64,000 bases of DNA from an uncultured Candidatus Saccharibacteria bacterium (GCA_964491805.1 CAZBGU010000001.1:91023-155022); one strand, 5' to 3'; positions 1,546 to 45,707 are shown, counted from the first letter of the stretch. Numbers and translations: made by a program. The notes: generated from the sequence alone by a model not told the origin.

Positions 1546-4341
1546 ATGACAACACAATCCGAACAACAACTTGAAGAAACTTTGATTGAACAACTAAAAG
1601 GGTTAGGATTTTCTGTTGTCACAATTGCAGATAAAGATTCATTACAACAGAATTTAAAAGTTCAACTTGAGAAGTTTAATAAAATAACTTTTTCAGATTC
1701 TGAGTTTACAAAAATACTAAATCATTTAAATAAGGGTGACAGGTTCCAGAAAGCAAAGACACTACGTGACCGATTTGTATTAACACGAGATGACGAAAGT
1801 ACTTTTTATATACGTTTCTTTAATATGGATATGTGGTGTCAGAATGAGTATCAAGTAACCCACCAAGTTACTCAAATTGGTAAATATGAAAACCGCTACG
1901 ATGTAACCCTCCTTATTAATGGTCTTCCTCTTGTCCAGGTTGAGCTCAAGCGTCGTGGTATAGAAATGAAAGAAGCTTTTAATCAGATACAAAGATATCA
2001 CAAACATTCGTTTACTGGAACGCTCTTTGAATATATACAAATCTTCGTTATTTCTAATGGAGTAAATACAAAATACTTTTCTAATAATCCAAAGCAATCA
2101 TTCGAACAGACTTTTTACTGGACTGATAAAGAAAATAGAAAGATATCAAATCTAGATGAGTTCGCAAGTGCTTTTCTTGAGAAATGTACAGTATCAGAAA
2201 TGATTGCTGAGTATATTGTTCTTGCTGAAGCTAAACAAATACCGATGACACTTCGTCCGTATCAGTACTATGCTGTAAAAGCAATTGAGGAACGAGTAAG
2301 AGAGTCAGACAAGAATGGTTATATATGGCACACAACAGGATCAGGAAAGACACTTACTTCATTTAAAGCAAGTCAGATACTTTCACAAATACCAGAAGTT
2401 AAGAAAGTGCTTTTTGTGGTAGATAGAAAAGATTTAGATATTCAAACAACAAAAGAATTCAACTCATTCTCTGATGGTTCGGTAGACGGAACAGATAATA
2501 CAATTAGTTTGGTAAATCAACTTAAAGATACAAATAGAAAGTTAATTGTAACTACTATTCAAAAACTTGATATTGCGATTGGTAGAGATAATTACTTACA
2601 ACAGTTTGAATATCTAGCAAATGAGAAGGTTGTAGTGATATTTGATGAATGTCATAGAAGTCAGTTCGGACAGACACATGCTCGCATTAAAGCATTCTTT
2701 AAGAGGGCTCAATTATTTGGTTTTACTGGTACACCAATCTTTGCAGAAAATAATGTGGGAGGAGTAACCACGGCAGATGTGTTCAGTGAATGTCTCCATA
2801 AGTACATTATCACTAATGCTATATCTGATAATAACGTACTTGGTTTTGCTGTTGAGTATGTTGGTAAATATACACAGAAAAGTCCAGATACATTGGACGC
2901 TGATATTTTTGCTGAAACATTAGTTACAGGAATAGATACAAAAGAAGTTCTTGAAAGTTCTGATCGTCTTAATAAGATTACTGACTATGTACTTGCAGAT
3001 TGGAAGAGAAAGACAAAGCAGGGAAAGTTCAATGCTGTATTCGCTGTGTCTTCGGTTGAAGTACTTAAGAAGTATTACACTCTTTTAAAAGATAAGAAGT
3101 CAGAAGATTTTAAAATTGCTACTATTTTCACATATCAAGCAAATGAAGACGAGAGTTCAGATATTCTAGATGTCGATGTATTCGGTGAAGGGTCTACAGT
3201 TAATCAACACTCGAGAGAGTTTTTGGAAGAATGTATCAAAGATTATAATAAAGAATTTTCTACAAACTTTTCTACTGACAGATTCTATGATTATTACAAA
3301 GATTTGCAAAAGAGAATTAAGAGTAAGGAAGTAGACCTCGTTCTTGTGGTCAACATGTTCTTGACTGGTTTTGATAGTCCATTGTTAAATACTTTGTATG
3401 TAGATAAGAATTTACGTTACCACGGACTTATACAAGCGTATTCAAGAACAAATAGATTACTTAATTCTGACAAGCCACATGGTAACATTGTTTCATTTAG
3501 AAACTTGAAAGAAGCAACAGATAAAGCTCTTGCACTCTTTGGTGATGAAAATGCAAAAGAAGTTGTATTTAAGAAGCCATATGAAGACCAGAAGAAAGAG
3601 TTTGAAAATAAGTTAACAGAATTGAAGGAAAAAGTGCCAACACTTGAATCTATTGATTTGTTACAAGGTGAAGAAGAAAAAGCAGGATTTGTAAAAACAT
3701 TCCGTGACCTACTTCGTATTAAATCTTCACTCGAAACATTTGCAGAATTTTCTTTTAGCGATCTTGGGATTTCAGAACAAGAGTTTTATGACTATCAAAG
3801 TAAGTATTTGGATATTTATGAAGAACGTAAGAACTACGAAAGTGAGGCAGAATCTATATTGGATCAGATTGATTTTGAAATTGAATTAACCGTTAGAGAC
3901 GTTATTAACTTTGATTATATTATTCATTTAATTGCAGGGCTTAAGAATATTACTTCTGATACTGTTCGAGAAAAGAAGACAGAAGAAATCTTACGTCTAT
4001 TTGATAGAGATGTTCAGTTAAGAAAGAAGAAGGATCTTATCAAGAAGTTTATCGAAGAGAATTTGCCAAAGATTGTTGAGGGTGGGGATGTTGAAAAAGC
4101 TTTCGCAGATTTCTGGACAAGTGAAAGATCTGAAAAGTTAAAAGAGATTGCTATTTCTGAAAATATCTCGGTAGAGAAAATTGAAAAATTGGTTGGTGAA
4201 TATTTGTATACAGAGAGATTGCCTTCTGGGCAAGAGATTGTTGATTTGTTACCTGAAGCACCAAAGATTTTAGAAAGACAAGGAATTATAGATCGTATTA
4301 AGGGTGCAATTGAAGATGTTGTAGATATGTTTGAATGGTAG
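1546..4341 (+). CDS. hsdR: type I restriction enzyme R-subunit-like helicase-nuclease (HsdR family), orphan
   Basis: 931 aa. N-terminal nuclease motif [21 protein letters not shown]; SF2 helicase motif I TGSGKTLT and motif [10 protein letters not shown]; LRPYQ segment. No hsdM/hsdS in the window. Confidence 0.7.
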
Positions 4342-4342
4342 A

Positions 4343-5668
4343 TTAACCTAAAGTAATTACTTTGTTCTTTAAAAGAATCTTACTTTTAAAACATCCTAGT
4401 AGTTCTCTCTTTTCTATATCACTTCCTTCTTTAAGAATATATTTAGCGTAGTTACGAATATCTACGTCCTTAATCTTAATTTGCTTTGTATCTCCTAAAA
4501 CGCTCCTTTGGAAGCTCTTAATTCTCTCAACTTCAGTTCGTATCTTTTCTTTCATTCCTATCTCATCTAGGTCAATTTTGTCTAGTAATTCTTGGAACTG
4601 TTTTATGAGTTCATCTTCGTTGGTATAACCACATTTACAGTTCTTATCTTTCGACTTTGTACATGCATAATATACGTAACGATGAACATTTCCATTTTGT
4701 TGTTTCTTTATCTTTTCATCGGCTGTAATACCAGAACCACATAGCCCACAAGTCATTAATTTAGTAAAAGCAAATTCTCTGTTATTAAATTCTGTTCTTG
4801 TAACTTGTCTTGTTAATTGAGATTGCACCTGATCATAGAGTTCTTTGGTAATGAGTGGTTTATGACTACCTTTATACCAGTTACCACTTTTTCTTGGATA
4901 CTCAAATTCTCCATAGTAAAAAGTATTCTTTAAAAGTAAATTAATGTTTCCTAAACTAAGGTGTTTCTTTCCGTATGAAGTTCTAAAATTAAGATCGAAT
5001 TTAAGCCAGTGGTAAACCTTTAAGCAACTCCATTTATCATAAGCAATCTTTTCAAACATTTCCTTGATAATGTGACCTCTATCTGGATCAATATACGTCT
5101 GACATTTTCTGTCCATTCTATTTTCTTTTAAATATCCAGTAGGGGCTGGGCATGGCCATAAACCCATCTCTACTCTTGTTCTTAATCCTCGTTTTACATT
5201 TACACTTTTGTTATCATTCTCTAGTTTTGCTTGAGAACATAAAATCATTAGTAAAAACTTTTCATTAGGTGAATTACTAAATGTTTGTCCATATGTTCGT
5301 ATTTGAAAAAGTAATTGTTGATCCATAAGATCTACTATTGAACCTAAGTCACCTGCATTTCTACTAATTCTTGAAGCGTCCCATGCTAAGATTCCATTAA
5401 ACCTTCCTCTTTTAATATCTTCTAGTATTTCTTTAAAAACTGGTCGTTGTCCTGAATCTTTAGCAGAATGAGATTCTCGTCTAATATCTACTATTTCAAG
5501 ACCTTCTCTTTCTGCTAATCTAAGCATTTCTTTAATTTGAGAATCAATAGATAAGATTTGTCTTTCTTCTGATTCAGTACTTTTTCTACTATACAAAACG
5601 TACTTCATTTTTTGAACTGGTAAAGCCGTCATATTACCCATAAGCCCAAATGTTTGTTGTTGTTCCAT
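4343..5668 (-). CDS. large serine recombinase (resolvase/invertase-type integrase)
   Basis: 441 aa. N-terminal resolvase catalytic region with YSRKST Ser motif, recombinase domain, C-terminal Cys-rich zinc-ribbon (CGLCGSG...YYAC). Confidence 0.85.
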   Translation of the reverse strand: MEQQQTFGLMGNMTALPVQKMKYVLYSRKSTESEERQILSIDSQIKEMLRLAEREGLEIVDIRRESHSAKDSGQRPVFKEILEDIKRGRFNGILAWDASRISRNAGDLGSIVDLMDQQLLFQIRTYGQTFSNSPNEKFLLMILCSQAKLENDNKSVNVKRGLRTRVEMGLWPCPAPTGYLKENRMDRKCQTYIDPDRGHIIKEMFEKIAYDKWSCLKVYHWLKFDLNFRTSYGKKHLSLGNINLLLKNTFYYGEFEYPRKSGNWYKGSHKPLITKELYDQVQSQLTRQVTRTEFNNREFAFTKLMTCGLCGSGITADEKIKKQQNGNVHRYVYYACTKSKDKNCKCGYTNEDELIKQFQELLDKIDLDEIGMKEKIRTEVERIKSFQRSVLGDTKQIKIKDVDIRNYAKYILKEGSDIEKRELLGCFKSKILLKNKVITLG

Positions 5669-6006
5669 ATTATATTAATGACAGAACCAAAAACCCTGCA
5701 TAGTCTATGCAGAACTAAAAAAGGCGACATTGTGAGAGATTTATTTGTCTATAAAAATGCCTTAGCAAAAGACCTTTTATGCGATATAATAGATCAATTA
5801 ATACAAGAGTATTAAGAAGAAAAATTTGCAGTAGCCTAACCCTTTAGTTCCTAGACCTAGAGGTATGGTGAAAAAACCAGTCGAGGATAAACAACCCATC
5901 ATGTGGGATTTACCTTGACTGGTCGTATCTGGAAACGGATATGGATGGCGCAAGCTGTCACTCACGTGGTGGGCTTTTTGTGTCTTAAAAAACCAGTCAA
6001 AAAAAT

Positions 6007-24214: not shown

Positions 24215-24616
24215 TCACTCGTCGTTGTCATCATCGCATGTAGCGATGACAGGCGACGGAGTTCTTTCAGGGCGTTCGCTGGGAACGGTGATTCTTGAAG
24301 ATTTTGTCACGGCTTGCTCATGGGTATGTTGTGGTTTGCGTGCAAAGAAAGCCACGACTAGAAGTACGACGATAACCGCAAGTCCTTTCAGCCAAGAAGG
24401 CGATCTTCTTCGTTTCAAGAAAAGGGATCTTGGTTTACTTCGCGTGCGCTTCCATGCCCATACACCGCCAACAACCATGAGAGTCGTTGATATGGTTCCT
24501 TTGATCACAAAGAACCAGAATGTTGCCACTGGGCCAGTCATGATACCTTTGTAGTACAACGTAAAGAACGTTGCCACAAGGAGGATGGTAACAACCATAG
24601 CTACTCGCTTCTTCAC
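24215..24616 (-). CDS. hypothetical small membrane protein
   Basis: 133 aa with three TM segments. In a locally GC-richer stretch where + strand ORFs also exist. Confidence 0.3.
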   Translation of the reverse strand: MKKRVAMVVTILLVATFFTLYYKGIMTGPVATFWFFVIKGTISTTLMVVGGVWAWKRTRSKPRSLFLKRRRSPSWLKGLAVIVVLLVVAFFARKPQHTHEQAVTKSSRITVPSERPERTPSPVIATCDDDNDE

Positions 24617-24628
24617 AGACTTCTCCTT

Positions 24629-25174
24629 GTGGTTTGTGGTAGGTTGAGTCCCATCGTATCTTTTTTATTGATAGCGGTCAAATTAGCAGCTCTAATGTGT
24701 TGTGGGTGGCTCTACCATTTTGGATGTTTTTGTGTGGTAAACTCTGTAGTAATGAACCTTCGCGGACTACTACAAAAAATGAGCATAGATCGTCTTGCAT
24801 CATATGTTGTACCAATTAATCGGTACACAATATACGTACTTACTATTTTTATTTGGGCCCCACATGGTGCTAAGGAGTGCGTTACTGTTTGTAATGGTCC
24901 CAATTTTGTTGCACCGATGATTTTTACTTTTTTGGCACCAAACTGGACGATGGACATGTCGTTACATGGATGGGTAATGCAACTACTGTTTTCTCCTCCA
25001 ATTTTTTTGCTTGTTTATGCAATCTTTCGTTTTGCAAAAAAGAAGTGGGGAATATTCCTCGAAGTGTACATTGTGAGATGGACAATCGTGTGGTATGGGG
25101 TGCTTGCATATTATAATTTTGTATTTTGGTATGGACCTCTTCGTCAATTTGTCTTTCCACTATTTGTTTTTTAA
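24629..25174 (+). CDS. hypothetical membrane protein, first gene of the ferric-reductase/b5 operon
   Basis: Hydrophobic, aromatic-rich. Ends 20 nt before the ferric-reductase start. True start may be internal. Confidence 0.4.
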   Translation: MVCGRLSPIVSFLLIAVKLAALMCCGWLYHFGCFCVVNSVVMNLRGLLQKMSIDRLASYVVPINRYTIYVLTIFIWAPHGAKECVTVCNGPNFVAPMIFTFLAPNWTMDMSLHGWVMQLLFSPPIFLLVYAIFRFAKKKWGIFLEVYIVRWTIVWYGVLAYYNFVFWYGPLRQFVFPLFVF

Positions 25175-25194
25175 GACACTATACATATACACTT

Positions 25195-26523
25195 ATGACT
25201 ATTCCACACAAAATTTCTAGAATGTTGTGGGTTCCTGCCCTCTCGGTGGTTATAGGGGTGCCGGTGCTTTCATGGCTACTTCATGCTTCCTTCGCGAGTA
25301 GCTTATCTTCATCATATTTTTTTCTTACACAAGTTGGGCAAATAACGGGAATCATCGGAGCTCAACTTTTTGCTTTCACACTAGTGCTAAGTGCTCGTAT
25401 TAAAGTAGTAGAGTATATCTTCGGTGGTCTCGATAAACTCTATGTAATACATCACCGTACAGGTGTTATATCGTTTGTCTTGCTTGCTATTCATCCGATT
25501 ATTCTCGCATTTCGCTATCTCGACGATGGGTTGGAAGGCGTCATGAATTTTCTTGTTCCTGTTAACAACACTCTTCCTAGAGATTTTGGTATTTATGCAG
25601 TTATTATCATGCTGCTGCTTTTATTTGTAACATTTTATGGATCGATCTTTTCGTACCGGTCACTTAAGAATGCACATCGCTTTATGGGGGCTGCATTTTT
25701 TTTGGGAACACTTCATATTTTTTTGATACCAAGTTCAATGAGTGATGATATTGCTCTCAAGATTTCATGCCTTGGCATGGCGGTAGTTGGGTGCCTTGCT
25801 TTTGTCTATAGAACATTGCTGGGGGCATACGTGGTAACACGGTACGACTATAATGTTAGCTCCGTGAATGATATAGGGCAGGGGGTCGTCGAAGTAACAC
25901 TCAGCCCTCATAAAGAAATAATGGAACATCTTCCTGGTCAATTCGCAATGCTTTCTCTTACCCATTCAAAAGTAGTCCCTGACGAAGAACATCCTTTTAC
26001 AATTAGTTCCAAGAGAGATAATGGAGAGATACGTTTTTCGATAAAAGCACTTGGTGATTATACGAGCCTTCTCTCTGGCGTTACTGTTGGTACAAAGGCA
26101 ACCGTAGAAGGGCCATATGGTGAGTTCTACTATGGATATGGGTCAAAGACACAAGTCTGGGTTGCGGGTGGAATTGGGGTTACACCGTTTGTGAGTATGG
26201 CTGAGGCACTCCTTAAAGAGGAGAGTATTGCGTATACTATTGATTTCTACTATTCTGTTCGTTCGGATAAGGATGGAGCATATAAGGATTTGTTTGCAAG
26301 GTTAGCAAAAAAGCATCCAAGCTTCACATTTCACTTTATGCCAAGTGATACGTCTGGGTATATAACGGGGGAAGTTCTCCTGAAAGAGATTGGTGATATT
26401 AAGAAGCGGGATATCTTTGTTTGCGGCCCACCACCAATGATGGCCGCACTGACTGAATCACTCGTGTCTCTTGGTGTGTCGAAGCGATATATTCATTCTG
26501 AGTGTTTCTCATTATTAAAATAA
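25195..26523 (+). CDS. ferric reductase / NADPH-oxidase-like transmembrane flavocytochrome (FRD-FAD-NAD domains)
   Basis: TM His pairs HRTG...x13...HPI and HRF...x13...H (bis-haem ligands); FAD motif HPFTISS; NAD motifs GGIGVTPF and CGPPPM. Start set to the ATG at 25195. Confidence 0.8.
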   Translation: MTIPHKISRMLWVPALSVVIGVPVLSWLLHASFASSLSSSYFFLTQVGQITGIIGAQLFAFTLVLSARIKVVEYIFGGLDKLYVIHHRTGVISFVLLAIHPIILAFRYLDDGLEGVMNFLVPVNNTLPRDFGIYAVIIMLLLLFVTFYGSIFSYRSLKNAHRFMGAAFFLGTLHIFLIPSSMSDDIALKISCLGMAVVGCLAFVYRTLLGAYVVTRYDYNVSSVNDIGQGVVEVTLSPHKEIMEHLPGQFAMLSLTHSKVVPDEEHPFTISSKRDNGEIRFSIKALGDYTSLLSGVTVGTKATVEGPYGEFYYGYGSKTQVWVAGGIGVTPFVSMAEALLKEESIAYTIDFYYSVRSDKDGAYKDLFARLAKKHPSFTFHFMPSDTSGYITGEVLLKEIGDIKKRDIFVCGPPPMMAALTESLVSLGVSKRYIHSECFSLLK

Positions 26524-26527
26524 GATC

Positions 26528-27088
26528 ATGACAATGAAAAACTTTTTTACATTATTCTCATTTTTGTTTCTAGGTGTTGTTGTTGCAATCTTGGTTGCTG
26601 GTTATATAAGTAAAGACAACCGATTGGCGCGTGAAGCTTACAGCAAAAAAACACAAGAACAGTTGATTCAGATAGCATCTTCAGTTGAGAGCTCTCAAAA
26701 ACAAATAGATTCTCTTGAAGAAAAGTTTAATGAGAGTCAGTCTGTACAGACCAGTACTACGGCAGGGTCGAAAAAGACAATAACCACAAAGTCTCAAACA
26801 CCAAGTAAAGCAAAGCCCACAACACCTGGAACGAAATTAACGAGCGAACTTGTTGCTAAGCATTCAACTGCATCTGACTGTTGGATTATTGTTTCCCAGA
26901 AAGTGTACTCTGTTTCTTCATACATATCTGAGCATCCAGGAGGAAAGTCTGTAATTGTAAAAATGTGTGGAAAGGATGCGACTACTGTTTTTACCAGTAG
27001 AGGTGACACGGGTGAACATTCTTCTACTGCGTGGCAGTTGCTAGGTCAGTTCTTGGTTGGTTCACTTGGTTCTACTGTTACATTGTAG
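26528..27088 (+). CDS. membrane-anchored cytochrome b5-domain protein
   Basis: 186 aa. N-terminal TM. C-terminal b5 domain with SDCWIIV...EHPGG...GKDAT...GEHS, carrying both axial His positions. Start 4 nt after the ferric-reductase stop. Confidence 0.8.
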   Translation: MTMKNFFTLFSFLFLGVVVAILVAGYISKDNRLAREAYSKKTQEQLIQIASSVESSQKQIDSLEEKFNESQSVQTSTTAGSKKTITTKSQTPSKAKPTTPGTKLTSELVAKHSTASDCWIIVSQKVYSVSSYISEHPGGKSVIVKMCGKDATTVFTSRGDTGEHSSTAWQLLGQFLVGSLGSTVTL

Positions 27089-27112
27089 AAAATATATTTA
27101 CTCGCATCGTAT

Positions 27113-30100
27113 ATGCCTTTACCGTATTTAGGAACAATCTTTCTCACATGGACAATTTTTGTTGGTGGGCTTACGTCTGTACTTGTTCATGTAGAGAATA
27201 GCAGGCTTTCTGAATCTGTATCGATAGTACCTCAGGTGTCTTCTCAAGAAAGGGAAGAAGCGAACGGAGGGGTTGATATTTCTTTCATTGCCAAAAAAGC
27301 TGAGAATCTTAAGCGTAGTATTGCAACATCACATATTGCGGAACGCTTTGCTTCGTCAGTTGATGGCACGTTAGGAGCACAAGAGGGGAGTGACTCAGCA
27401 TCTTCATCGGCAAGTATTGTAGAAGTAGATGATGCTGAAAATTCAGTTGTCGGTAACCTTCTTGGTCTTTTTAGTAAGAAGTCAGATTATTCTCTTAAGG
27501 TAGATATTATTGGAGATGGACATGTGATCTATTCGTCTGGTTCTATTTGTGGAGGTGTGTGTAGTGTTGCGTACCATGCAGACTCAGTGGCAACACTTAT
27601 CGCAACCCCAGGTCCAGATAGTACGTTTGCTGGTTGGGGTGGTGCTTGCAAAGGTAAGGATGTTTGTACAGTAAAGATGAATGACAAACGTATAGTTAGT
27701 GCTACTTTTACTAAGCTTCCTTCTTCAGAATTGAAAAACACGCTTCCGAAGCAACCTGTTGTTACGGAAGCTGAAGTTACAAGGCATGCAACACAGTCTG
27801 ACTGTTGGATTATTGTTTCTCAGAAAGTGTACGCAGTATCGAGCTACCTTTCTCTGCACCCAGGAGGAAAATCAGTCATTGTAAAAATGTGTGGCAAGGA
27901 TGCGACCGCCGTCTTTACAGATAGAGGCGGGACTGGCGCCCACTCTCGTTCTGCTTGGTCGCTTCTTGGAACATTTATAGTTGGTGTGCTACCTTCATTT
28001 GATCAGACAAAGGTAAGTGCGGTCAAAGAATATACACCTGAAGATGTTGCAAGACATGCGTCACCGGCAGATTGTTGGATTTCTATTTTGGACAGTGTGT
28101 ATTCTGTTTCGAGTTATATAGCTTTGCATCCCGGGGGTAGACTTAATATTGAAAGAGTCTGCGGTAAAGATGCCACTGAAGTTTTTAACAATCGTGATTC
28201 TACAGGCACTCATTCAGCATACGCATGGTCACTTCTTAAAGCTTATCTTGTGGGAGCTCTTACAATTTCTGTTCCAACAGCAAGCATCTCTAATTCTGCA
28301 TCAACTACAAAAGTAACAACTGTGTCTCCGGTTGGTAATTCGTCCGAATTTACACTTTCACAGATTGCAGCACATTCTACAAAGACAGATTGTTGGATAA
28401 TCGTTTCTGATAATATCTATTCAGTTGGAAGTTATATTGCAATGCACCCAGGAGGAACCTCTGTAATTACAAACCTCTGCGGTAAGGATGCTACAAATGG
28501 GTTCACTACTCGAGGTGGAACTGGCGCACACTCTGGTTCAGCATGGACAATGCTTGGAAGTTATTTTGTTGGCGTTGTTGCGGGAACTGTTCCTGCACAG
28601 GTACAAGTTCCAAACACCCCTACATCGCCATCTGTCACACCAACTCCACCACCCAACGTTTCTTCAATAACGTATTCTCTTCTACAGGTTGCCGCACACG
28701 CTACACAGGCAGATTGTTGGATAATTGTCTCTAACAATATTTATTCAGTCTCTAGTTACATAACGATGCACCCAGGAGGTATGAATATCATCACTGGCCT
28801 ATGTGGGAAAGATGCTACAAACGATTTCACAACCCGGGCGGGAACAGGTTCGCATTCTACGTATGCATGGGGATTGCTTGGCGGATATCTTATTGGAAGT
28901 GTTGGTGCTGCTTCGACGGTTATTCCTCCAACTCCTACACCGGCACCATCACCAACCCCCGCACCAACTCCTACACCGACAGCAACATTCACGCTTGCAC
29001 AGATTGCTACACATGCAACACAATCTGATTGTTGGATTGTGGTATCTAATAATATTTATTCAATCGGAAGCTACCTTGCAATGCATCCAGGTGGAATAGC
29101 TGTGATTACCCCTTCATGTGGTAAGGAGGCAACCACTGCATTTACTACCAAGAATAAAGGCAGCTCACATTCAACGTATGCGTGGGGTCTCCTTGGTGGA
29201 TATATTGTTGGGTCTGTCACTGGAACAACTCCAGCGCCAGTTCCTGCTCCTGTTCCAACACCGACACCAACCCCTACGCCAACACCAAGTGGTGGCCCAT
29301 ATACTGCAGCACAGATTGGCACACATGCTACACAATCTGATTGTTGGATAGTTATCGGAACGAATGTGTATTCTGTTGGTTCATATACATTATCACATCC
29401 GGGCGGAGTCTCTGCTATTACAAATCTTTGCGGAAAAGATGCAACTACTGCTTTTGCAACTAAAAATGGTCTCGGGGCACATTCATCATATGCACAATCT
29501 CTACTTGGTGGTTATCTTGTAGGCGCACTTTCTGGTCCGCCACCATCTTCAACACCAACACCTACACCAACATCAAGTACATACACTGCTACTCAGATTT
29601 CTTCGCACTCGTCTGTGTCAGATTGTTGGATAGTAATTGGAACGAATGTGTATTCAGTGGGAGCATATCTTACTCTTCATCCAGGAGGTGGGTATGCAAT
29701 TAGTAAATATTGTGGAAAGAATGCTACAACTGCTTTTGGTAATCGTGGAGGAACCGGAACGCACTCAGCTGCTGCAAACTTGGCACTTGGTGGATTCCTT
29801 ATTGGAACTCTCTCTGGAACTGCTCCAGCATCTACACCGGTTAATCCTGCCCCATCGTTTGTGTACAACCAAACAGATGTTGCTGCACACTCATCACCAT
29901 CAGACTGCTGGATCATCGTTAGTGGTTCTGTGTACTCAGTTGCACCGTATGTTTCTCTCCATCCGGGAGGAAGAACGAGAATCACGAACCTGTGCGGTAA
30001 GGATGCTACAACATCGTTTAATAACGTTGGCCATTCAACAAAAGCAAAAGGCATTTTAGGTGGTCTGCTTATTGGGACGTATTCAGCTACAGTTTCCATT

Positions 30101-30718
30101 CCTCCATCGGCTGTTAATGGTGTCTGTGGCCCGGCAAACAACACATCGGTTTCGTTGGCACCATTAGCTGGGCTCTGTGCAATAGGAACCGCATCAAGTG
30201 TATTTGGTTCAGGGCCATTCACATGGAGTTGTACTGGGTCAAATGGTGGAGTGACTGCAAGTTGTAGCGCAACCCTTGCTTCCGTCGTAACTCCACCATC
30301 GCCAATTGACGGTGTGTGTGGGGCAGCAAACAATACGTCCGTATCTTCTGCTCCTACAACAGGTCTGTGTACATTAGGAACTGCGTCAAGTGTGTCTGGT
30401 TCAGGACCATTCACGTGGAGTTGTGCTGGGTCAAATGGTGGAGTAGCTGCAAATTGTAGTGCAACAAAAACTGTTACAGTAACGCCGCAGACATATTCGG
30501 TAACAGTGACTAGTTCTCTAGTACTCAGTTCTTCTGGTATGACTCTCAACACAGGTGATAAAGTTGTGTTCACTTATACAAGTGGTTCAGGTGAAGCGAA
30601 GATTTCAGTAAGTCCGTCTTCATCAGCATCTCCAGCGAGCTTTACTCTTGATAAAGATATTACAACCAAAACAGTGACAATAAGTGCGTCAGGTGTGTAT
30701 ACATTTATTGCGCGTTAG
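27113..30718 (+). CDS. giant secreted/surface protein with 8 tandem cytochrome b5-like haem-binding domains, N-terminal InlB-B-repeat-like domain and C-terminal Cys-rich repeats
   Basis: 1201 aa. Signal-anchor N-terminus. Eight units of DCWI(I/V)...Y...HPGG...CGK(D/N/E)AT...G.HS joined by Pro/Thr-rich linkers. Two 56-aa Cys-rich repeats near the C-terminus. Confidence 0.8.
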   Translation: MPLPYLGTIFLTWTIFVGGLTSVLVHVENSRLSESVSIVPQVSSQEREEANGGVDISFIAKKAENLKRSIATSHIAERFASSVDGTLGAQEGSDSASSSASIVEVDDAENSVVGNLLGLFSKKSDYSLKVDIIGDGHVIYSSGSICGGVCSVAYHADSVATLIATPGPDSTFAGWGGACKGKDVCTVKMNDKRIVSATFTKLPSSELKNTLPKQPVVTEAEVTRHATQSDCWIIVSQKVYAVSSYLSLHPGGKSVIVKMCGKDATAVFTDRGGTGAHSRSAWSLLGTFIVGVLPSFDQTKVSAVKEYTPEDVARHASPADCWISILDSVYSVSSYIALHPGGRLNIERVCGKDATEVFNNRDSTGTHSAYAWSLLKAYLVGALTISVPTASISNSASTTKVTTVSPVGNSSEFTLSQIAAHSTKTDCWIIVSDNIYSVGSYIAMHPGGTSVITNLCGKDATNGFTTRGGTGAHSGSAWTMLGSYFVGVVAGTVPAQVQVPNTPTSPSVTPTPPPNVSSITYSLLQVAAHATQADCWIIVSNNIYSVSSYITMHPGGMNIITGLCGKDATNDFTTRAGTGSHSTYAWGLLGGYLIGSVGAASTVIPPTPTPAPSPTPAPTPTPTATFTLAQIATHATQSDCWIVVSNNIYSIGSYLAMHPGGIAVITPSCGKEATTAFTTKNKGSSHSTYAWGLLGGYIVGSVTGTTPAPVPAPVPTPTPTPTPTPSGGPYTAAQIGTHATQSDCWIVIGTNVYSVGSYTLSHPGGVSAITNLCGKDATTAFATKNGLGAHSSYAQSLLGGYLVGALSGPPPSSTPTPTPTSSTYTATQISSHSSVSDCWIVIGTNVYSVGAYLTLHPGGGYAISKYCGKNATTAFGNRGGTGTHSAAANLALGGFLIGTLSGTAPASTPVNPAPSFVYNQTDVAAHSSPSDCWIIVSGSVYSVAPYVSLHPGGRTRITNLCGKDATTSFNNVGHSTKAKGILGGLLIGTYSATVSIPPSAVNGVCGPANNTSVSLAPLAGLCAIGTASSVFGSGPFTWSCTGSNGGVTASCSATLASVVTPPSPIDGVCGAANNTSVSSAPTTGLCTLGTASSVSGSGPFTWSCAGSNGGVAANCSATKTVTVTPQTYSVTVTSSLVLSSSGMTLNTGDKVVFTYTSGSGEAKISVSPSSSASPASFTLDKDITTKTVTISASGVYTFIAR

Positions 30719-38837: not shown

Positions 38838-41249
38838 ATGAAATTTTCAAAGAATTGGTTGCAAGATTATATTGTTGAATCACTTCCTTCTGATGAAGTG
38901 ATTGAGTCAGAGCTTAATAAGAAAGCTTTTGAGGTTGAGGGGGTTGCTGTGGTTGCGCGACCAAGAGTCGCACAAGTAGATGCAGGCAATACTGATACAG
39001 TTTTTGATATTAAGGTATTACCAAACCGTGCACATGATGCACTCGGTCATCATGGTTTGGCATATGAACTATGTGCTTCCCTCGGCCTCACCTTTAACAA
39101 GGAGAAGGACGTTATTGATGATCAGTCATATTATGACAAAAGCGTTGAAGGGGTATCTGTTTCAATAGAAGATCATTTGTCGTGCTCTCGATTTATGTCT
39201 GTACGAATTGATCATGTTGTAGTTGAGGAGAGTCCGGAATGGTTACAAGAGAGACTTGCAGCAATAGGGCAGAGAAGCATTAACACTATTGTTGACATCA
39301 CAAACTATGTGCAATTTTCATTAAATAAACCAATGCATGCATACGACGCTCGCACCATTAAAGGTACGCTGTCTGCACGTATGGCAAAGAAGGGAGAAGA
39401 GTTACTTACACTCGATGACAAACATCTTATCCTTGATGAGCATACGCTTGTAATTGCTGATGATGAGAAAGTTCTTGGTCTTGCTGGAATTAAAGGTGGA
39501 AAATATAGTGGTATTCAAAGCGATACAACGAGCATTATTCTTGAGAGTGCTAATTTTGATCCTGTTCTTATCAGAAAAACATCAGAACGATATGGTATTA
39601 AGACGGATGCTTCGAAGCGATTTGAGAATGGGATCGCAAACAACCTTGTTATTGAGGGTTTACATATGACCTCAAATCTCATTCATGCTTTATGTGGAAG
39701 CGCACACAAAGGTCAGGTAACTGATGTGTATCCAAAAAAAGATACACCGTATTATGTTGGTATTTCAAAGTTAGAGCTCAATAATATTCTCGGCACATCA
39801 TATTCTGATGAAGATATATCAAAAACTCTTACGAGACTCTCATTTCCTTACGAGGTGATCGTTCCTCATGAATATATTACAACAACATACCCAGCACTTA
39901 TAGGCGCAGGATATAAGAACCCATCGAGCATGCGAGAAGATGCTCCTCATTTGTTTAGCTGCTCTTCTCTGGTGAGTTATCTGTATAAAGGTATTTGGAT
40001 GCCTAGCCTTTCTATAGATAAGTTTGTCTTTTCGAAGCGAATCACAAGGGAAGAGTTACGTTTTGGCGATCTTATTTTTACAAACACAAATGAAGGAGTT
40101 ATCCGATATGAGTCGGTTGAGTTTATGCGAGGAACTAAAGTTCCTGAAGGAGTTGATCATGTCGCTATGTACTGCGGCGACGGTGTTGTTATACATGCGA
40201 CAAAAGTAAAAGGAATGGTAGTAAAAGAATCTCTCGATACATTTGTAAATGGAAGAAATATCGTTGGGTACGGAAGAGTAGTTGATGATCTCTATGAAAA
40301 ACGTTATGTTGTCCGTGTCCCTTCCGTGCGGCTTGATATTCGTATAAAGGAAGATCTTGCCGAAGAGGTTGGTCGCATCATTGGTTATGATAAGCTAACC
40401 CCGTCACTTCCAAACCTTTCTCGAAAAGGTGTATTACCAAAGGTAACACATTACGAGAATAAAGTTCGTGAGATACTCTTTGCACATGGGTTTTCAGAAG
40501 TAATTACGTATTCATTTGGAGATGTTGGTGAAGTGGAGCTTATGAAGGGTCTAGCCGACGATAAGGAGAAGTTGCGATCAAATCTTGGGAAAGGTGTTCA
40601 TGATGCGGTTATGCGCGGTCTTTATAATGCTCCTCTTCTTGGTCAAAAAACAATTAAAATTTTTGAATTTGGTAATGTGTTTACAGGGGGTAAAGAAGTT
40701 AAACATTTAGCTATCGCTCTTGATGATGGTGGTAAGAAAACTAGTTTTACCGAAGAGCTGGAGATGATTCTCGCTGCAATCAAGAGAACACTTCCTGTTA
40801 TATCAATAGAATGTGATACTGTTTCTACGAAACCATATGTTATCGAGATTGACTTTGATACACTAATCTCATCACTTCCAGACCCAACATCATATGAAGC
40901 TCCTATTTATTGTTTACCGTCAAATCATGAATCAGATGCTTCGTCTCGCTTTGTTTATAAGCCCGTCTCTCCTTATCCGTTTATTTCTCGTGATATTGCT
41001 GTGTGGGTACCTGTTTCTGTCTCATGGGAGGATATCAGAGGTTTTTGTGATCAAGTTGGGAATGCTCTTGTTGTTCGTATTGATTTATTTGATACGTTCA
41101 CAAAGGAGAAAGATGGTGTCACAATGACATCATATGCATTTCGACTCGTATTTCAAAGTTACGACAGGACACTGACAGATGATGAAGTAAACACGTGTGT
41201 GCAAGAGTATCACCAAATCTTACAAGAGAAAGGGTACGAGATTAGATAG
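38838..41249 (+). CDS. pheT: phenylalanine--tRNA ligase beta subunit with inserted NlpC/P60-like domain
   Basis: 803 aa. MKFSKNWLQDYI start; B3/4, B5, B6-7 and C-terminal FDX-ACB regions recognisable. About 150 aa inserted in B5 (39873-40330) carry LFSCSSLVSYLY...GDLIF...HVAMYCGDGVVIHA. Confidence 0.85.
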   Translation: MKFSKNWLQDYIVESLPSDEVIESELNKKAFEVEGVAVVARPRVAQVDAGNTDTVFDIKVLPNRAHDALGHHGLAYELCASLGLTFNKEKDVIDDQSYYDKSVEGVSVSIEDHLSCSRFMSVRIDHVVVEESPEWLQERLAAIGQRSINTIVDITNYVQFSLNKPMHAYDARTIKGTLSARMAKKGEELLTLDDKHLILDEHTLVIADDEKVLGLAGIKGGKYSGIQSDTTSIILESANFDPVLIRKTSERYGIKTDASKRFENGIANNLVIEGLHMTSNLIHALCGSAHKGQVTDVYPKKDTPYYVGISKLELNNILGTSYSDEDISKTLTRLSFPYEVIVPHEYITTTYPALIGAGYKNPSSMREDAPHLFSCSSLVSYLYKGIWMPSLSIDKFVFSKRITREELRFGDLIFTNTNEGVIRYESVEFMRGTKVPEGVDHVAMYCGDGVVIHATKVKGMVVKESLDTFVNGRNIVGYGRVVDDLYEKRYVVRVPSVRLDIRIKEDLAEEVGRIIGYDKLTPSLPNLSRKGVLPKVTHYENKVREILFAHGFSEVITYSFGDVGEVELMKGLADDKEKLRSNLGKGVHDAVMRGLYNAPLLGQKTIKIFEFGNVFTGGKEVKHLAIALDDGGKKTSFTEELEMILAAIKRTLPVISIECDTVSTKPYVIEIDFDTLISSLPDPTSYEAPIYCLPSNHESDASSRFVYKPVSPYPFISRDIAVWVPVSVSWEDIRGFCDQVGNALVVRIDLFDTFTKEKDGVTMTSYAFRLVFQSYDRTLTDDEVNTCVQEYHQILQEKGYEIR

Positions 41250-44730: not shown

Positions 44731-45159
44731 ATGGCAATTTATTCAAAGGAAGAATTGGAAACAATGTTACAGGAAGCCGGTCTTCGTGTGACTGATCATC
44801 GTGTAGCTGTCCTTGCATCTGTTGCAAAAGTTAGGCAGCCGATTACGGTGTATGAGCTTGTAGATGTGTTACGTAAGAAGAATAATATTGACCAGGCAAC
44901 GGTATATCGTAATCTTTCCTCGCTACATGAAGCAGGACTACTTCGGCGTCTCGACTTTAATCACGGCCATGCTCACTATGAGCTCGAGACAGGGCGTGCG
45001 TCGCATCAGCTTGTATGTCACTCATGTGAGACTATTGAGAAGATAGAGGGGATATCAGTCGACGATGCTGTTAAAAAGATGCTTAAGAAAAGCAAGAAAT
45101 TTAAAAATATGACGACACATTCTATAGAAATATATGGAACATGCAAGAAGTGTGTGTAG
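44731..45159 (+). CDS. Fur-family metalloregulator (Zur/Fur)
   Basis: 142 aa. Winged helix TVYRNLSSLHEAGLL, HGHAHYEL metal site, C-terminal CxxC...CxxC. Confidence 0.8.
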   Translation: MAIYSKEELETMLQEAGLRVTDHRVAVLASVAKVRQPITVYELVDVLRKKNNIDQATVYRNLSSLHEAGLLRRLDFNHGHAHYELETGRASHQLVCHSCETIEKIEGISVDDAVKKMLKKSKKFKNMTTHSIEIYGTCKKCV

Positions 45160-45248
45160 GAGAAGCAAGGAGTTTAACACTAGAAGTTGTAAGAATGCGG
45201 GTATATTTTTTCAGCAATGGGTTCGCATTTTTTGATATACTTTAGTTT

Positions 45249-45707
45249 GTGATACATATCAATCAGCAAGCACCGCCATTTTCTCTTCCAGATCAAGACG
45301 GTAAGATACATACATTGGAAGATTATAAAGGAAAGAAAGTATTACTTTACTTTTATCCAAAGGATGACACTCCGGGATGCATGATAGAGGCGTGTAGTTT
45401 TCGTGATAACTATCAGGCATTACAAGACAGCGGTCTTGTTGTGCTCGGCGTCAGTAAGGACAGTACGAAAAGTCATAAAAAGTTTGTGGAAAAGTACAAG
45501 CTTCCTTTTTCACTTCTTTCTGATGTTGAAGGTGTGGTGTGTGCGGCTTACGGTGTTTGGCAAAAGAAAAAGTTTATGGGTCGAGAATATATGGGCATTG
45601 AACGAACAAGTTTTTTAATTGATAAGAGCGGTGTCATCGAGAAGTTGTACGAAACTGTTAAACCAAAGATTCATGTCGACGAGGTAAAAGTAGATGTTGG
45701 AGCATAA
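45249..45707 (+). CDS. bcp: peroxiredoxin Bcp (AhpC/TSA family)
   Basis: 152 aa. FYPKDDTPGC peroxidatic Cys motif. Apparent GTG start. Confidence 0.8.
   Translation: MIHINQQAPPFSLPDQDGKIHTLEDYKGKKVLLYFYPKDDTPGCMIEACSFRDNYQALQDSGLVVLGVSKDSTKSHKKFVEKYKLPFSLLSDVEGVVCAAYGVWQKKKFMGREYMGIERTSFLIDKSGVIEKLYETVKPKIHVDEVKVDVGA

Follow-up and report, generated by a model that had tools for sequence, protein, structure and literature searches.

Four open reading frames on the + strand of the 64-kb stretch of DNA analysed here (the window; operon at positions 24629-30718), which comes from a tiny bacterium of the symbiotic CPR/Patescibacteria type, probably encode, judging from their sequences, an NAD(P)H-driven module for the export of electrons across the membrane. 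The genes are co-directional and, with corrected starts, are separated by gaps of 20, 4 and 24 nt (Table 1). The start of gene 2 was moved from TTG 25126 to ATG 25195 because its homologues are 440-447 aa in length. Similarly, gene 1 most likely starts at ATG 24752 (140 aa) and not at GTG 24629, as its orthologues are 125-157 aa. An earlier note on this DNA had described four tightly spaced genes encoding a small membrane protein, a complete FRD/NOX-type enzyme, a TM-anchored single cytochrome b5 and a 1201-aa signal-anchored protein with eight tandem b5 domains. It had also claimed two axial His in every b5 domain, Pro/Thr-rich linkers, an N-terminal InlB-B-like module and two C-terminal Cys-rich repeats, and the results below agree with this description throughout. 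No acceptor, haem-uptake or maturation genes are found within the operon, and it has no promoter signal that gives regulatory clues. Genes for AhpC and FUR are located approximately 14 kb downstream, both here and in relatives, and the FUR gene belongs to the operon's syntenic block.

Table 1. Features of the operon, in window coordinates
Feature	Position	Strand	Basis or remark
Gene 1, small helical membrane protein, ~140 aa (most likely start)	24752..25174	+	ORF open from GTG 24629
Gene 2, SpNOX-like FRD/NOX flavocytochrome, 442 aa	25195..26523	+	Pfam, SpNOX structure match
Ferric_reduct transmembrane haem domain, two His pairs	25345..25707	+	PF01794, 37 bits
FAD-binding domain (HPFTISS)	25855..26121	+	PF08022/PF00970
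NAD(P)H-binding domain (AGGIGVTPF ... CGPPPMM)	26161..26451	+	PF00175, E-value 2.4e-14
Gene 3, signal-anchored single cytochrome b5, 186 aa	26528..27088	+	PF00173 E-value 9e-20, 1CXY match
Gene 4, signal-anchored poly-b5 protein, 1201 aa	27113..30718	+	eight PF00173 domains
Gene 4 InlB B-repeat-like (Flg_new_2) module	27539..27715	+	26.9 bits
Gene 4 b5 domain 1	27758..27979	+	74% identical to gene 3 domain
Gene 4 b5 domain 2	28028..28249	+	PF00173, alignment
Gene 4 b5 domain 3	28346..28567	+	PF00173, alignment
Gene 4 b5 domain 4	28670..28891	+	PF00173, alignment
Gene 4 b5 domain 5	28985..29206	+	PF00173, alignment
Gene 4 b5 domain 6	29297..29518	+	PF00173, alignment
Gene 4 b5 domain 7	29579..29800	+	PF00173, alignment
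Gene 4 b5 domain 8 (last, most divergent)	29861..30082	+	His-His spacing 24, not 28
Gene 4 four-Cys repeat 1	30116..30271	+	small beta module, pLDDT >90
Gene 4 four-Cys repeat 2	30308..30463	+	model pLDDT >90
Gene 4 C-terminal beta-rich domain, without His or Cys	30482..30715	+	low-confidence model

The protein encoded by gene 1 matches no Pfam family. It has the conserved motif PHGAKEC-x3/4-CNGP ... PNWT.DM ... RW ... YN..FW, and its orthologues are located directly 5' of the FRD gene in the related loci L001, L003, L004 and L010. The family comprises only 5 real clusters among 1.8 billion representatives. The AF2 model is all-helical, with a pLDDT (55) that is too low for use.

Gene 2 has 2700 homologues, and the few with a named organism are CPR/Patescibacteria. 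The protein has six hydrophobic segments and the conserved domains Ferric_reduct, FAD_binding_8 and NAD_binding_1, each above its gathering score. Its best solved match is SpNOX (8QQ7/8QT6; E-value: 2.5e-39 over approximately 370 residues, 52-423). As in NOX-type members of the FRD superfamily, two His pairs approximately 13 residues apart lie on two helices (H86/87 and H100; H161 and H174, in the 442-aa numbering), and these residues align with the haem ligands identified in SpNOX (PMC5676040). Across 34 homologues, H100 and H174 are invariant, while H86/H87 and H161 are nearly so (at least 90% conserved). The C-terminal FNR-like domains have the FAD (HPF[ST]) and NAD(P)H (GxGxxP, CGP) signatures of the same superfamily: in these homologues, H266, P267, F268, S271 and S272 of the FAD domain are invariant or nearly invariant, and G325, G326, G328, P331, C410 and P412 of the NAD domain are invariant. 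The dehydrogenase domain is homologous to cytochrome b5 reductases (matches to 7ROM and 2EIX).

Gene 3 encodes a single N-terminal hydrophobic helix (aa 6-24), a tether of approximately 80 aa and one b5 domain (aa 106-180). Its best solved match is cytochrome b558 of Ectothiorhodospira vacuolata (1CXY; E-value: 1.8e-13), a soluble periplasmic b5 whose two axial His and two Cys line up with those of gene 3. All nine b5 domains of genes 3 and 4 match the PF00173 fold as well as PDB b5 structures, and they align to true b5 without gaps or insertions, 1CXY being the best. Their mutual identity is 39-74%, and H34-P-G-G, H62-S, C16 and C45 are invariant in the alignment. This conservation of the axial His despite such divergence, with no DNA-level repeat, was counted in favour of electron export. 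The Cys pair is shared by 1CXY and by 113 of 124 related domains, and is absent from cytosolic b5. A MAPR-type identity, which would place the domains in the haem-free MAPR/steroid-binding branch, was ruled out by the bis-His ligands and by the lack of a MAPR insert or Tyr ligation. CXXCH haem-attachment motifs, the mark of c-type cytochromes, are absent from genes 1-4 and occur once, by chance, in the whole window.

Gene 4 encodes one N-terminal helix and eight PF00173 domains (E-value: 3e-138) joined by seven linkers of 16-34 aa, most of them rich in P, T, S and A. The Flg_new_2 module exceeds its cut-off of 23.6 bits when the N-terminal region is scanned alone, and is also present in the orthologues P0122 and P0123. 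The distinctive final b5 domain recurs in the L001 orthologue. The four-Cys repeats (two copies of 52 aa each) belong to a family found in approximately 20 other short proteins, two of which are labelled Paceibacterota/Peribacteria; no fold match was found for the model of repeat 1. The C-terminal beta-rich domain is kept in the L001 and L007 orthologues and in P0172, and the C-terminus (...VYTFIAR) has no LPXTG motif. The poly-b5 array is not an artefact, because no long-period DNA repeat was detected and an identical 1201-aa protein was independently assembled from SRR12487046.

The b5 domains of genes 3 and 4 most likely face the outside of the cell, because of a signal-anchor pattern, an acidic gene 4 flank, the Cys pair and modules of extracytoplasmic type. 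The pattern is present in 23 of 23 FRD-linked single-b5 proteins: a short, positively charged n-region of MK(K) type that lacks acidic residues leads into a hydrophobic segment of 19-22 aa. The residues following the gene 4 helix carry a net negative charge, while the charges beside the gene 3 helix (+1 on its N-terminal and +3/-2 on its C-terminal side) are ambiguous alone. The InlB-like repeat, PT linkers and four-Cys repeats of gene 4 are typical of extracytoplasmic proteins.

The association of FRD and b5 genes recurs strongly in searches from either side. An FRD gene followed by a b5 gene was found in 17 of 80 distant FRD loci, on CPR and DPANN contigs, and the reverse search from the b5 domain found an adjoining FRD gene in 7 of 26 loci. 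The b5 gene lies directly 3' of the FRD gene, often 4 nt away or overlapping, at FRD identities of 59%, 51% and 39%. Most FRD+b5 loci have only one b5, and the core function can therefore do without a long chain. The poly-b5 gene is an addition specific to its clade, and in it the number of domains is 8, 7, 5, 4 or 0, with the first, penultimate and last domains positionally conserved despite this variation. Related multi-b5 proteins elsewhere are coupled to DoxX or PepSY_TM-like membrane proteins, which we assess as membrane redox modules; PepSY-like systems have been described as such (PMC8238504).

From the observed domain identities, conserved ligands, linked genes and signal-anchor pattern, we infer haem loading, the course that electrons take and in what order, their passage between domains, and the acceptor as follows. 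The gene 2 flavocytochrome would oxidize cytoplasmic NAD(P)H and pass electrons from FAD to its inner and then its outer b haem. The outer haem, which is likely to be exposed because the external loops are short, would reduce the membrane-tethered gene 3 b5 instead of, or besides, O2. In SpNOX, the distal heme is exposed and cytochrome c is reduced directly, and its authors suggest non-O2 acceptors (PMC5676040, PMC11031084); the His/Arg of the eukaryotic O2 centre are not conserved even in SpNOX (PMC11031084). The gene 3 b5 would act as a swinging shuttle on its 80-residue tether and, in the poly-b5 clade, would deliver electrons to the eight gene 4 domains, which would exchange them through collisions of neighbouring tethered domains. 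Reducing power could thereby be carried tens of nm out through the wall, to the specialized terminal b5 and the distal Cys-rich and beta modules. The final acceptor, for which the operon has no gene, would most likely be an external oxidant (Fe(III) complexes or O2), or else an extracytoplasmic enzyme or partner surface. Overall, NAD(P)H would be re-oxidized, reduction would take place at the cell surface, or both; if this is true, the operon provides a route for NAD(P)H re-oxidation where no respiratory chain is visible in the window.

The earlier note had proposed a path from cytoplasm to exterior along a b5 chain acting like a wire. Of the three findings that it had named as fatal to this reading (cytoplasmic b5 domains, repeats of the MAPR branch, and FRD and b5-repeat genes that do not co-occur in related genomes), none was obtained. 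The gene layout, ligands, linkage and signal-anchor pattern are consistent with such a path, but the wire is weakened: closely packed haems are not expected because the b5 domains are separate folds on flexible linkers. Gene 4 is best read as a flexible, beads-on-a-string relay working by tethered diffusion. These linkers would make hopping slower than in c-type wires, which counts against export. To our knowledge, CPR bacteria have no haem biosynthesis, so the 11 haems would have to be scavenged.

A specific sub-case of electron export is an assimilatory ferric reductase, in which extracellular Fe(III), chelated or in minerals, is reduced by the b5 chain for Fe(II) uptake. This is possible, although we consider it unlikely. 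Eukaryotic ferric reductases belong to the FRD family, the syntenic block includes FUR, and VIT1 is found 4-6 kb upstream of the operon in L001, L003, L004 and L007; MsrQ-like FRD clusters with VIT1 have been proposed as assimilatory iron reductases (PMC8238504). However, VIT1 is absent from this 64-kb window and is elsewhere encoded on the opposite strand, with housekeeping genes between it and the operon. Neither a Fur box nor a Fur-box-like site was found upstream of the operon, and SpNOX is not a direct ferric reductase (PMC5676040). It is more doubtful that the b5 domains serve exclusively to supply electrons to one particular extracytoplasmic enzyme whose gene lies elsewhere, such as a peroxidase, an oxygenase acting on lipids or glycans, or an enzyme that repairs methionine sulfoxide or disulfides. 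In eukaryotes, b5 usually works for enzymes, and the arrangement would mirror MsrQ and MsrP, since MsrQ is the only prokaryotic FRD protein of identified function and feeds a periplasmic enzyme (PMC11031084). The downstream AhpC and FUR genes also fit such a role, as does locus L099, where the gene for a PQQ-type sugar dehydrogenase (GSDH) comes after a tri-b5 gene. Against this, no candidate acceptor enzyme is conserved beside the FRD-b5 pair in the loci examined, and an eight-domain chain is hard to square with delivery to a single enzyme.

The haem auxotrophy noted above, the non-covalent binding of haem by b5, and the resemblance of haem-binding domains on Pro/Thr linkers with one anchor to multi-NEAT proteins would also suit a system like the NEAT-domain Isd relays that cross a Gram-positive wall, in which nine surface b5 domains capture, store or relay haem from a host or the environment and the FRD protein reduces it to aid hand-off or iron release. 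Such a role is improbable. Bis-His six-coordinate b5 proteins are typical electron carriers that bind haem tightly; a haem ABC transporter, sortase signal and NEAT domain are all absent from the operon and its neighbours (Pfam scans, C-terminus); what is conserved at other loci is one b5 in strict linkage with a source of electrons; and the same arrays are paired with other redox membrane modules such as DoxX. Finally, the homology of the gene 2 dehydrogenase domain to b5 reductases and the undecided charges of the gene 3 helix could be taken to mean that the b5 domains are cytoplasmic and are fed as in NADH-cytochrome b5 reductase/b5 pairs, with the TM haems irrelevant. We give this very little credence, as the n-region and hydrophobic pattern is signal-like family-wide, acidic residues prevail just beyond the gene 4 helix, the closest solved relative (1CXY) is periplasmic, and the Cys pair, eight further Cys in the C-terminal repeats, Pro/Thr linkers and InlB-like module point outside.

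The putative electron-export module shares features with several known systems. Gene 2 resembles SpNOX in its six TM helices, two bis-His haems, FAD and NAD(P)H domains, size and short external loops. However, the two are only approximately 30% identical, and SpNOX has no described dedicated protein acceptor, whereas here a b5 acceptor gene is translationally adjacent. In MsrPQ of E. coli, a dihaem membrane protein of the FRD family likewise uses its distal haem to reduce an extracytoplasmic protein that docks to it (PMC11031084), but MsrQ is not fused to a dehydrogenase domain and donates to a molybdoenzyme, not a b5. The b5 domains share with 1CXY the HPG...H-S ligands, the 28-residue His-His spacing and the two Cys positions; 1CXY is a single soluble domain with no known FRD link, while those described here are anchored and repeated. 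The likeness to c-type conduits and nanowires of the MtrA/OmcS type, which carry electrons across or beyond the envelope via many haems, is one of proposed role and is a functional analogy only, since here separate domains without CXXCH lie on flexible linkers and the haems of those conduits are packed edge to edge.

The earlier note had called the system previously undescribed. This probably holds only for the poly-b5 array, which appears to be the sole unreported part; no description of such arrays was found in the literature. A published analogue is provided by MsrQ-like (PF01794+PF00175) flavinylated systems, where electrons reach an extracytosolic redox carrier from an FRD protein fused to an NAD-binding domain (Meheust et al. 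2021, PMC8238504). Multi-flavinylated carriers with up to 13 repeated cofactor domains have been proposed for longer-distance transfer in Gram-positive-type envelopes, and flavinylation has been reported to be under-represented in CPR (PMC8238504). The cofactor here would be non-covalent b haem in a b5 fold in place of ApbE-attached FMN, and Pfam scans found neither ApbE nor FMN_bind in the operon or 20 neighbouring genes. The FRD/b5 pairing itself is known: co-localization of pFre and cytb5 was reported in 185 CPR genomes in a 2021 preprint, which proposed a membrane complex of unknown function (bioRxiv 10.1101/2021.11.17.468889). The present operon belongs to the same phylum-level group, its named homologues are CPR, and its PF01794 gene is adjacent to, and so within 10 kb of, PF00173 genes. 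That preprint centred on MAPR-like cytb5MY (with Tyr-type haem ligation), two atypical cytb5-like classes and two-component regulators, and does not mention tandem arrays. Here, by contrast, a cytb5MY member is absent, Pfam scans found no histidine kinase or response regulator among the operon neighbours, every b5 domain is of the classical bis-His type (clade 2), a single protein having as many as eight, and the FRD-b5 pair also occurs on DPANN-labelled contigs.

The four ORFs of the operon are separated, with corrected starts, by gaps of 20, 4 and 24 nt. These ORFs and their Pfam domains bear out the co-directional four-gene operon described in the earlier note, with two start codons moved: that of gene 2 to ATG 25195 (homologues are 440-447 aa, and the exact 442-aa form is present in public data) and that of gene 1 to about ATG 24752, from which its orthologues (125-157 aa) align. 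A promoter/terminator scan of the operon gave chance-level results, and no Fur-box-like site was found 5' of it. The UvrB gene 235 nt 3' of the operon looked like a conserved neighbour, yet this adjacency is confined to the close clade and L005 (a compared locus on another contig) and is treated as synteny. Gene 1 encodes a small membrane protein whose family is conserved and narrow: it makes up 5 real clusters in 1.8 billion representatives, and in this clade its gene always lies directly 5' of the FRD gene. Its invariant residues are P-H, E-C...C-G-P, D-M, R-W and Y-N. An AF2 model from 6 sequences reached a pLDDT of 55, too poor for a fold search, and a 1031-aa protein (P0165) was rejected as a homologue because the match is a low-complexity repeat artefact. 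Gene 1 may encode an assembly or docking subunit.

Gene 2 has the Pfam domains Ferric_reduct, FAD_binding_8 and NAD_binding_1, and its best solved relative is SpNOX of Streptococcus pneumoniae (8QQ7/8QT6; E-value: 2.5e-39, residues 52-423). Both of its His pairs align with the haem ligands of SpNOX (H69/H129 and H83/H142; PMC5676040). Across 34 homologues, H100 and H174 never vary, conservation is 90% or more at H86/87 and H161, and the FAD (HPF..SS) and NAD (GGxGxxPF, CGPP) motifs are as conserved as the haem His residues. Gene 2 can thus be classified as a complete FRD/NOX-type enzyme, as had been proposed. Hydropathy gives six helices, and, like SpNOX, the protein has short external loops. 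With NAD(P)H on the cytoplasmic side, the second His in each pair, and hence the distal haem, should lie at the outer face. In SpNOX, the distal haem is exposed and cytochrome c is reduced directly, about 40% of this being SOD-insensitive (PMC5676040; PMC11031084). The residues of the eukaryotic O2 centre are not kept in SpNOX (PMC11031084), and its physiological acceptor, which is open in the SpNOX literature, is possibly not O2 (PMC5676040; PMC11031084).

Pfam Cyt-b5 matches one domain in gene 3 (E-value: 9e-20) and eight in gene 4 (E-value: 3e-138). The best solved match of these domains is cytochrome b558, a periplasmic protein of Ectothiorhodospira vacuolata (1CXY; E-value: 1.8e-13), followed by ordinary microsomal and mitochondrial b5. 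All nine domains share H-P-G-G, the second axial H-S, a helix-1 His and two Cys (D-C-W and C-G-K). Both axial His residues are invariant, as the earlier note had claimed, so the domains belong to the bis-His haem-binding branch and a MAPR or steroid-binding identity is ruled out. The Cys pair is common to these domains and 1CXY, absent from the cytosolic b5 sequences compared and kept in 113 of the 124 related domains gathered; in 1CXY, these positions presumably form a disulfide. The His-His spacing is 28 in 1CXY and in domains 1-7 of gene 4 (numbered from the N-terminus), and 24, eukaryote-like, in domain 8, where the loop before the second axial His is 4 residues shorter. The seven-domain orthologue at L001 has the same special last domain (spacing 24), and the positions of the penultimate and last domains are conserved between the two proteins. 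This terminal domain may be specialised as an exit domain.

Pfam and structural models also support the predicted layout of gene 4, with an N-terminal InlB-like module, eight b5 domains and two Cys-rich repeats. The InlB-B-repeat-like Flg_new_2 exceeds its cut-off in a scan restricted to the N-terminal region. The C-terminus has no Pfam match; its two four-Cys repeats are modelled at pLDDT >90, and a Foldseek search of the repeat model against the PDB gave no match below E 0.09. Repeats of this kind are found in about 20 further short proteins; most are unnamed, and two carry a Paceibacterota/Peribacteria label. The b5 domains are joined by flexible linkers of 16-34 residues, and the middle domains carry little charge (2-3 basic and 1-3 acidic residues). 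Pairwise identity among the b5 domains is 39-74%, domain 1 being closest to that of gene 3 (74%). In domains 3-6, neighbours are most alike (66-69%), which points to growth of the array by internal duplication. An assembly artefact was rejected: the domains have diverged, TRF finds only short Pro/Thr-linker microrepeats in the array DNA, and an identical gene 4 protein was assembled independently from SRR12487046.

Topology was judged by comparing the N-termini of 23 FRD-linked single-b5 proteins. All 23 begin with 3-9 residues that include 1-3 Lys/Arg and no acidic residue, followed by a hydrophobic stretch of 19-22 residues and a mixed-charge flank. This pattern predicts a Sec signal-anchor that keeps the N-terminus inside and leaves the C-terminus outside. 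Gene 3 taken alone is ambiguous in orientation, and gene 4 has a net negative flank after its helix. The InlB-like module, the Pro/Thr linkers and the Cys residues (8 + 16) that make up the rest of gene 4 are features usual in extracytoplasmic proteins. The partner pattern and these features of gene 4 point to b5 domains on the outside, where the earlier note had put them.

An FRD gene followed by an anchored b5 gene is found at FRD identities of 59% (L001), 51% (L003, L004) and 39% (L005, L006). Among 80 species-representative distant loci (<=40% identity to gene 2), 18 have a b5 ORF, immediately downstream and on the same strand in all but one. The b5-bearing loci come from CPR lineages and from contigs with Pacearchaeota and Woesearchaeota labels. 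The set also includes FRD loci from named strains in culture (Rhizobium, Pseudarthrobacter, Clostridium and other genera), all of which lack a b5 ORF. When metagenomes were searched from the b5 side, a strong FRD match adjoined the b5 gene in 7 of 26 loci, many of the others being short contigs. The expected co-occurrence of FRD and b5 genes is thus seen from both search directions. The poly-b5 gene extends this pair in a clade-specific way: its orthologues lie directly after FRD and b5 with varying domain counts, and L003, L004 and L005 lack it. Other anchored multi-b5 proteins have 3-6 domains with FN3 or Big_7 spacers. DoxX lies 3' of, or is fused to, such proteins at L008 and L095 and in the homologous proteins P0129 and P0130, and one di-b5 gene is followed by a PepSY_TM-like ORF.

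The window encodes glycolysis, pentose-phosphate, malic enzyme and housekeeping genes. Outside the operon, it contains no other cytochrome, c-type haem motif or respiratory gene. VIT1, which lies upstream in the relatives L003, L004 and L007, is absent from the window, and an iron link through VIT1 was rejected on this ground.

Positions and domain content of the operon, its orthologues and other features of the window and the compared loci (L0xx)
Locus	Position (strand)	Feature	Length (aa)	b5 domains	Modules and remarks
Window	24.6-30.7 kb (+)	Operon			4 consecutive ORFs
Window		Poly-b5 (gene 4)	1201	8	InlB-like, Cys repeats, end domain
Window	29861-30082	Domain 8 of gene 4			
L001		Poly-b5	1067	7	InlB-like, Cys-repeat and end modules as in window
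L007		Poly-b5	801	5	InlB-like and end domain, without Cys repeats
L010		Poly-b5	674	4	InlB-like only
L007	4141-5404	FRD called as two ORFs	261 + 172		Possible frameshift, sequencing error or pseudogene
L017	6920-8697	FRD and anchored b5			DPANN-labelled; genes overlap by 4 nt; aIF5B-type IF2 neighbour
L018	about 3159-4873	FRD and anchored b5			DPANN-labelled
L038	about 4-1466	FRD and anchored b5			DPANN-labelled
L005	13874-17317	Cas12a (Cpf1)-like gene			REC1, PI-like, RuvC and NUC domains; just 3' of FRD-b5-UvrB; Campbellbacteria-like contig
L008	4402-6824	DoxX-linked multi-b5		4-5	Class includes P0129/P0130; DoxX fusion N-terminal; no FRD nearby
L095	510-3538	DoxX-linked multi-b5		4-5	As L008
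L013	8200-9297	Di-b5 partner		2	Ends in short domain, PepSY-like by eye (...YEAKLDAANNIVEIDD)
L031	8109-9242	Di-b5 partner		2	As L013
L099	5124-9305	FRD divergent from cyclophilin and tri-b5 genes		3	PQQ-type glucose/sorbosone dehydrogenase gene (GSDH) follows
L104	5097-8465	FRD divergent from cyclophilin and tri-b5 genes		3	
Window	24215-24616 (-)	Membrane-protein ORF	133		Opposite strand, between TGT and gene 1; no Pfam family; no similarity to same-position ORF in L004
Window	5833-5959 (+)	LOOT RNA (Rfam RF03000)			87.5 bits (gathering score 46.4); unrelated to operon
Window	38838-41249 (+)	Phenylalanyl-tRNA synthetase beta subunit			NlpC/P60 peptidase-domain match, aa 371-463 (32 bits, cut-off 23), between B3_4 and B5; unusual insertion
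Window	44731-45695 (+)	FUR and AhpC			About 14 kb 3' of operon; order as in L003, L004 and L007

A model for the operon can be put forward. In the best-supported reading, electrons would pass from NAD(P)H to FAD, to the inner haem and to the outer haem. The outer haem would reduce the gene 3 b5, whose 80-residue tether should let it reach the membrane surface, and from there electrons would move through domains 1-8 of gene 4 to an external acceptor. Given the flexible linkers, fixed haem packing is not expected, and transfer between domains would occur by collisions of tethered neighbours; for the eight-domain chain, first likened to a wire, a relay by tethered diffusion fits better. The near absence of charge on the middle domains should favour self-exchange. 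Potentials of b5 are around 0 mV, well above those of NOX haems at about -250 mV, so the electron direction would be downhill. The contour length of the chain is estimated at roughly 60-100 nm, which would span the wall and surface layer. We tentatively propose that poly-b5 could represent a new class of extracellular, non-covalent b-haem conduit that discharges the NAD(P)H electrons of respiration-less episymbionts to external acceptors or the host surface. The same tentative proposal would extend over the ultra-small CPR episymbionts and, with a single b5, DPANN.

Other functions can be weighed against this conduit. If electrons are indeed exported, the system could be an assimilatory ferric reductase; the VIT1 and Fur-box searches were negative, and within export this is a possible but minority outcome. 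The b5 domains might instead donate electrons to an unlinked extracytoplasmic enzyme, which we consider rather unlikely. Another reading is a NEAT-like relay or store of haem. Since b5 arrays occur with several membrane modules that are regarded as redox-linked, an electron-carrier role fits better than haem scavenging, and the haem relay is improbable. A cytoplasmic b5/b5-reductase pair could be drawn from gene 3 alone, given its ambiguous orientation; with all 23 partners carrying the signal-anchor pattern, b5 domains in the cytoplasm are scarcely credible.

The conduit reading has precedents. PF01794 occurs in 1427 of 7645 CPR genomes, and 185 of the 1427 have a PF00173 gene within 10 kb; the pairing was not seen outside CPR, and a membrane complex of unknown function was proposed (bioRxiv 10.1101/2021.11.17.468889). 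The focus of that preprint is the MAPR-like cytb5MY with Tyr-type haem ligation, and tandem arrays are unmentioned (bioRxiv 10.1101/2021.11.17.468889). Although it describes the pairing as CPR-only, here it is also found on Pacearchaeota- and Woesearchaeota-labelled contigs. Proteins that combine FRD ('MsrQ-like') and NAD domains are described as feeding extracytosolic flavoproteins (Meheust et al. 2021, PMC8238504). Multi-flavinylated proteins are possible long-range conduits, and flavinylation is rare in CPR (PMC8238504). The earlier CPR pairing and the flavinylated FRD systems make this locus a b-haem version of a design principle already on record. No published tandem or poly-b5 protein or CPR NOX was found beyond the 2021 preprint. 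The system is therefore not, as the earlier note had supposed, wholly undescribed: the FRD/b5 pairing in this lineage was noticed earlier and not explained, whereas no eight-domain b5 chain was found in print. Within the literature searched, the predicted eight-domain bis-His chain and its positional organisation are new, as is the wider multi-b5 pattern, read from gene content, with its alternative membrane partners and DPANN occurrences.

To our knowledge, CPR bacteria count as obligate fermenters that have no electron transport. A dedicated route for electrons from NAD(P)H to the outside would alter models of their redox balance and host dependence and, if the conduit reading is true, 'purely fermentative' organisms would gain a form of extracellular respiration or host redox coupling. 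As far as we know, the lineage is also thought unable to make haem, and the 11 haems required would imply haem piracy. Translationally coupled, extracytoplasmic and conserved across CPR and DPANN, the b5 partner is a candidate acceptor for bacterial NOX/SpNOX-type enzymes, for which the structural papers leave the physiological acceptor as an open question (PMC5676040; PMC11031084); the conduit, if real, would reveal their natural protein acceptor. With its b haems, the eight-domain chain would parallel the multihaem c-type and multi-flavinylated conduits, and it would rely on tethered diffusion, not on packed cofactors.
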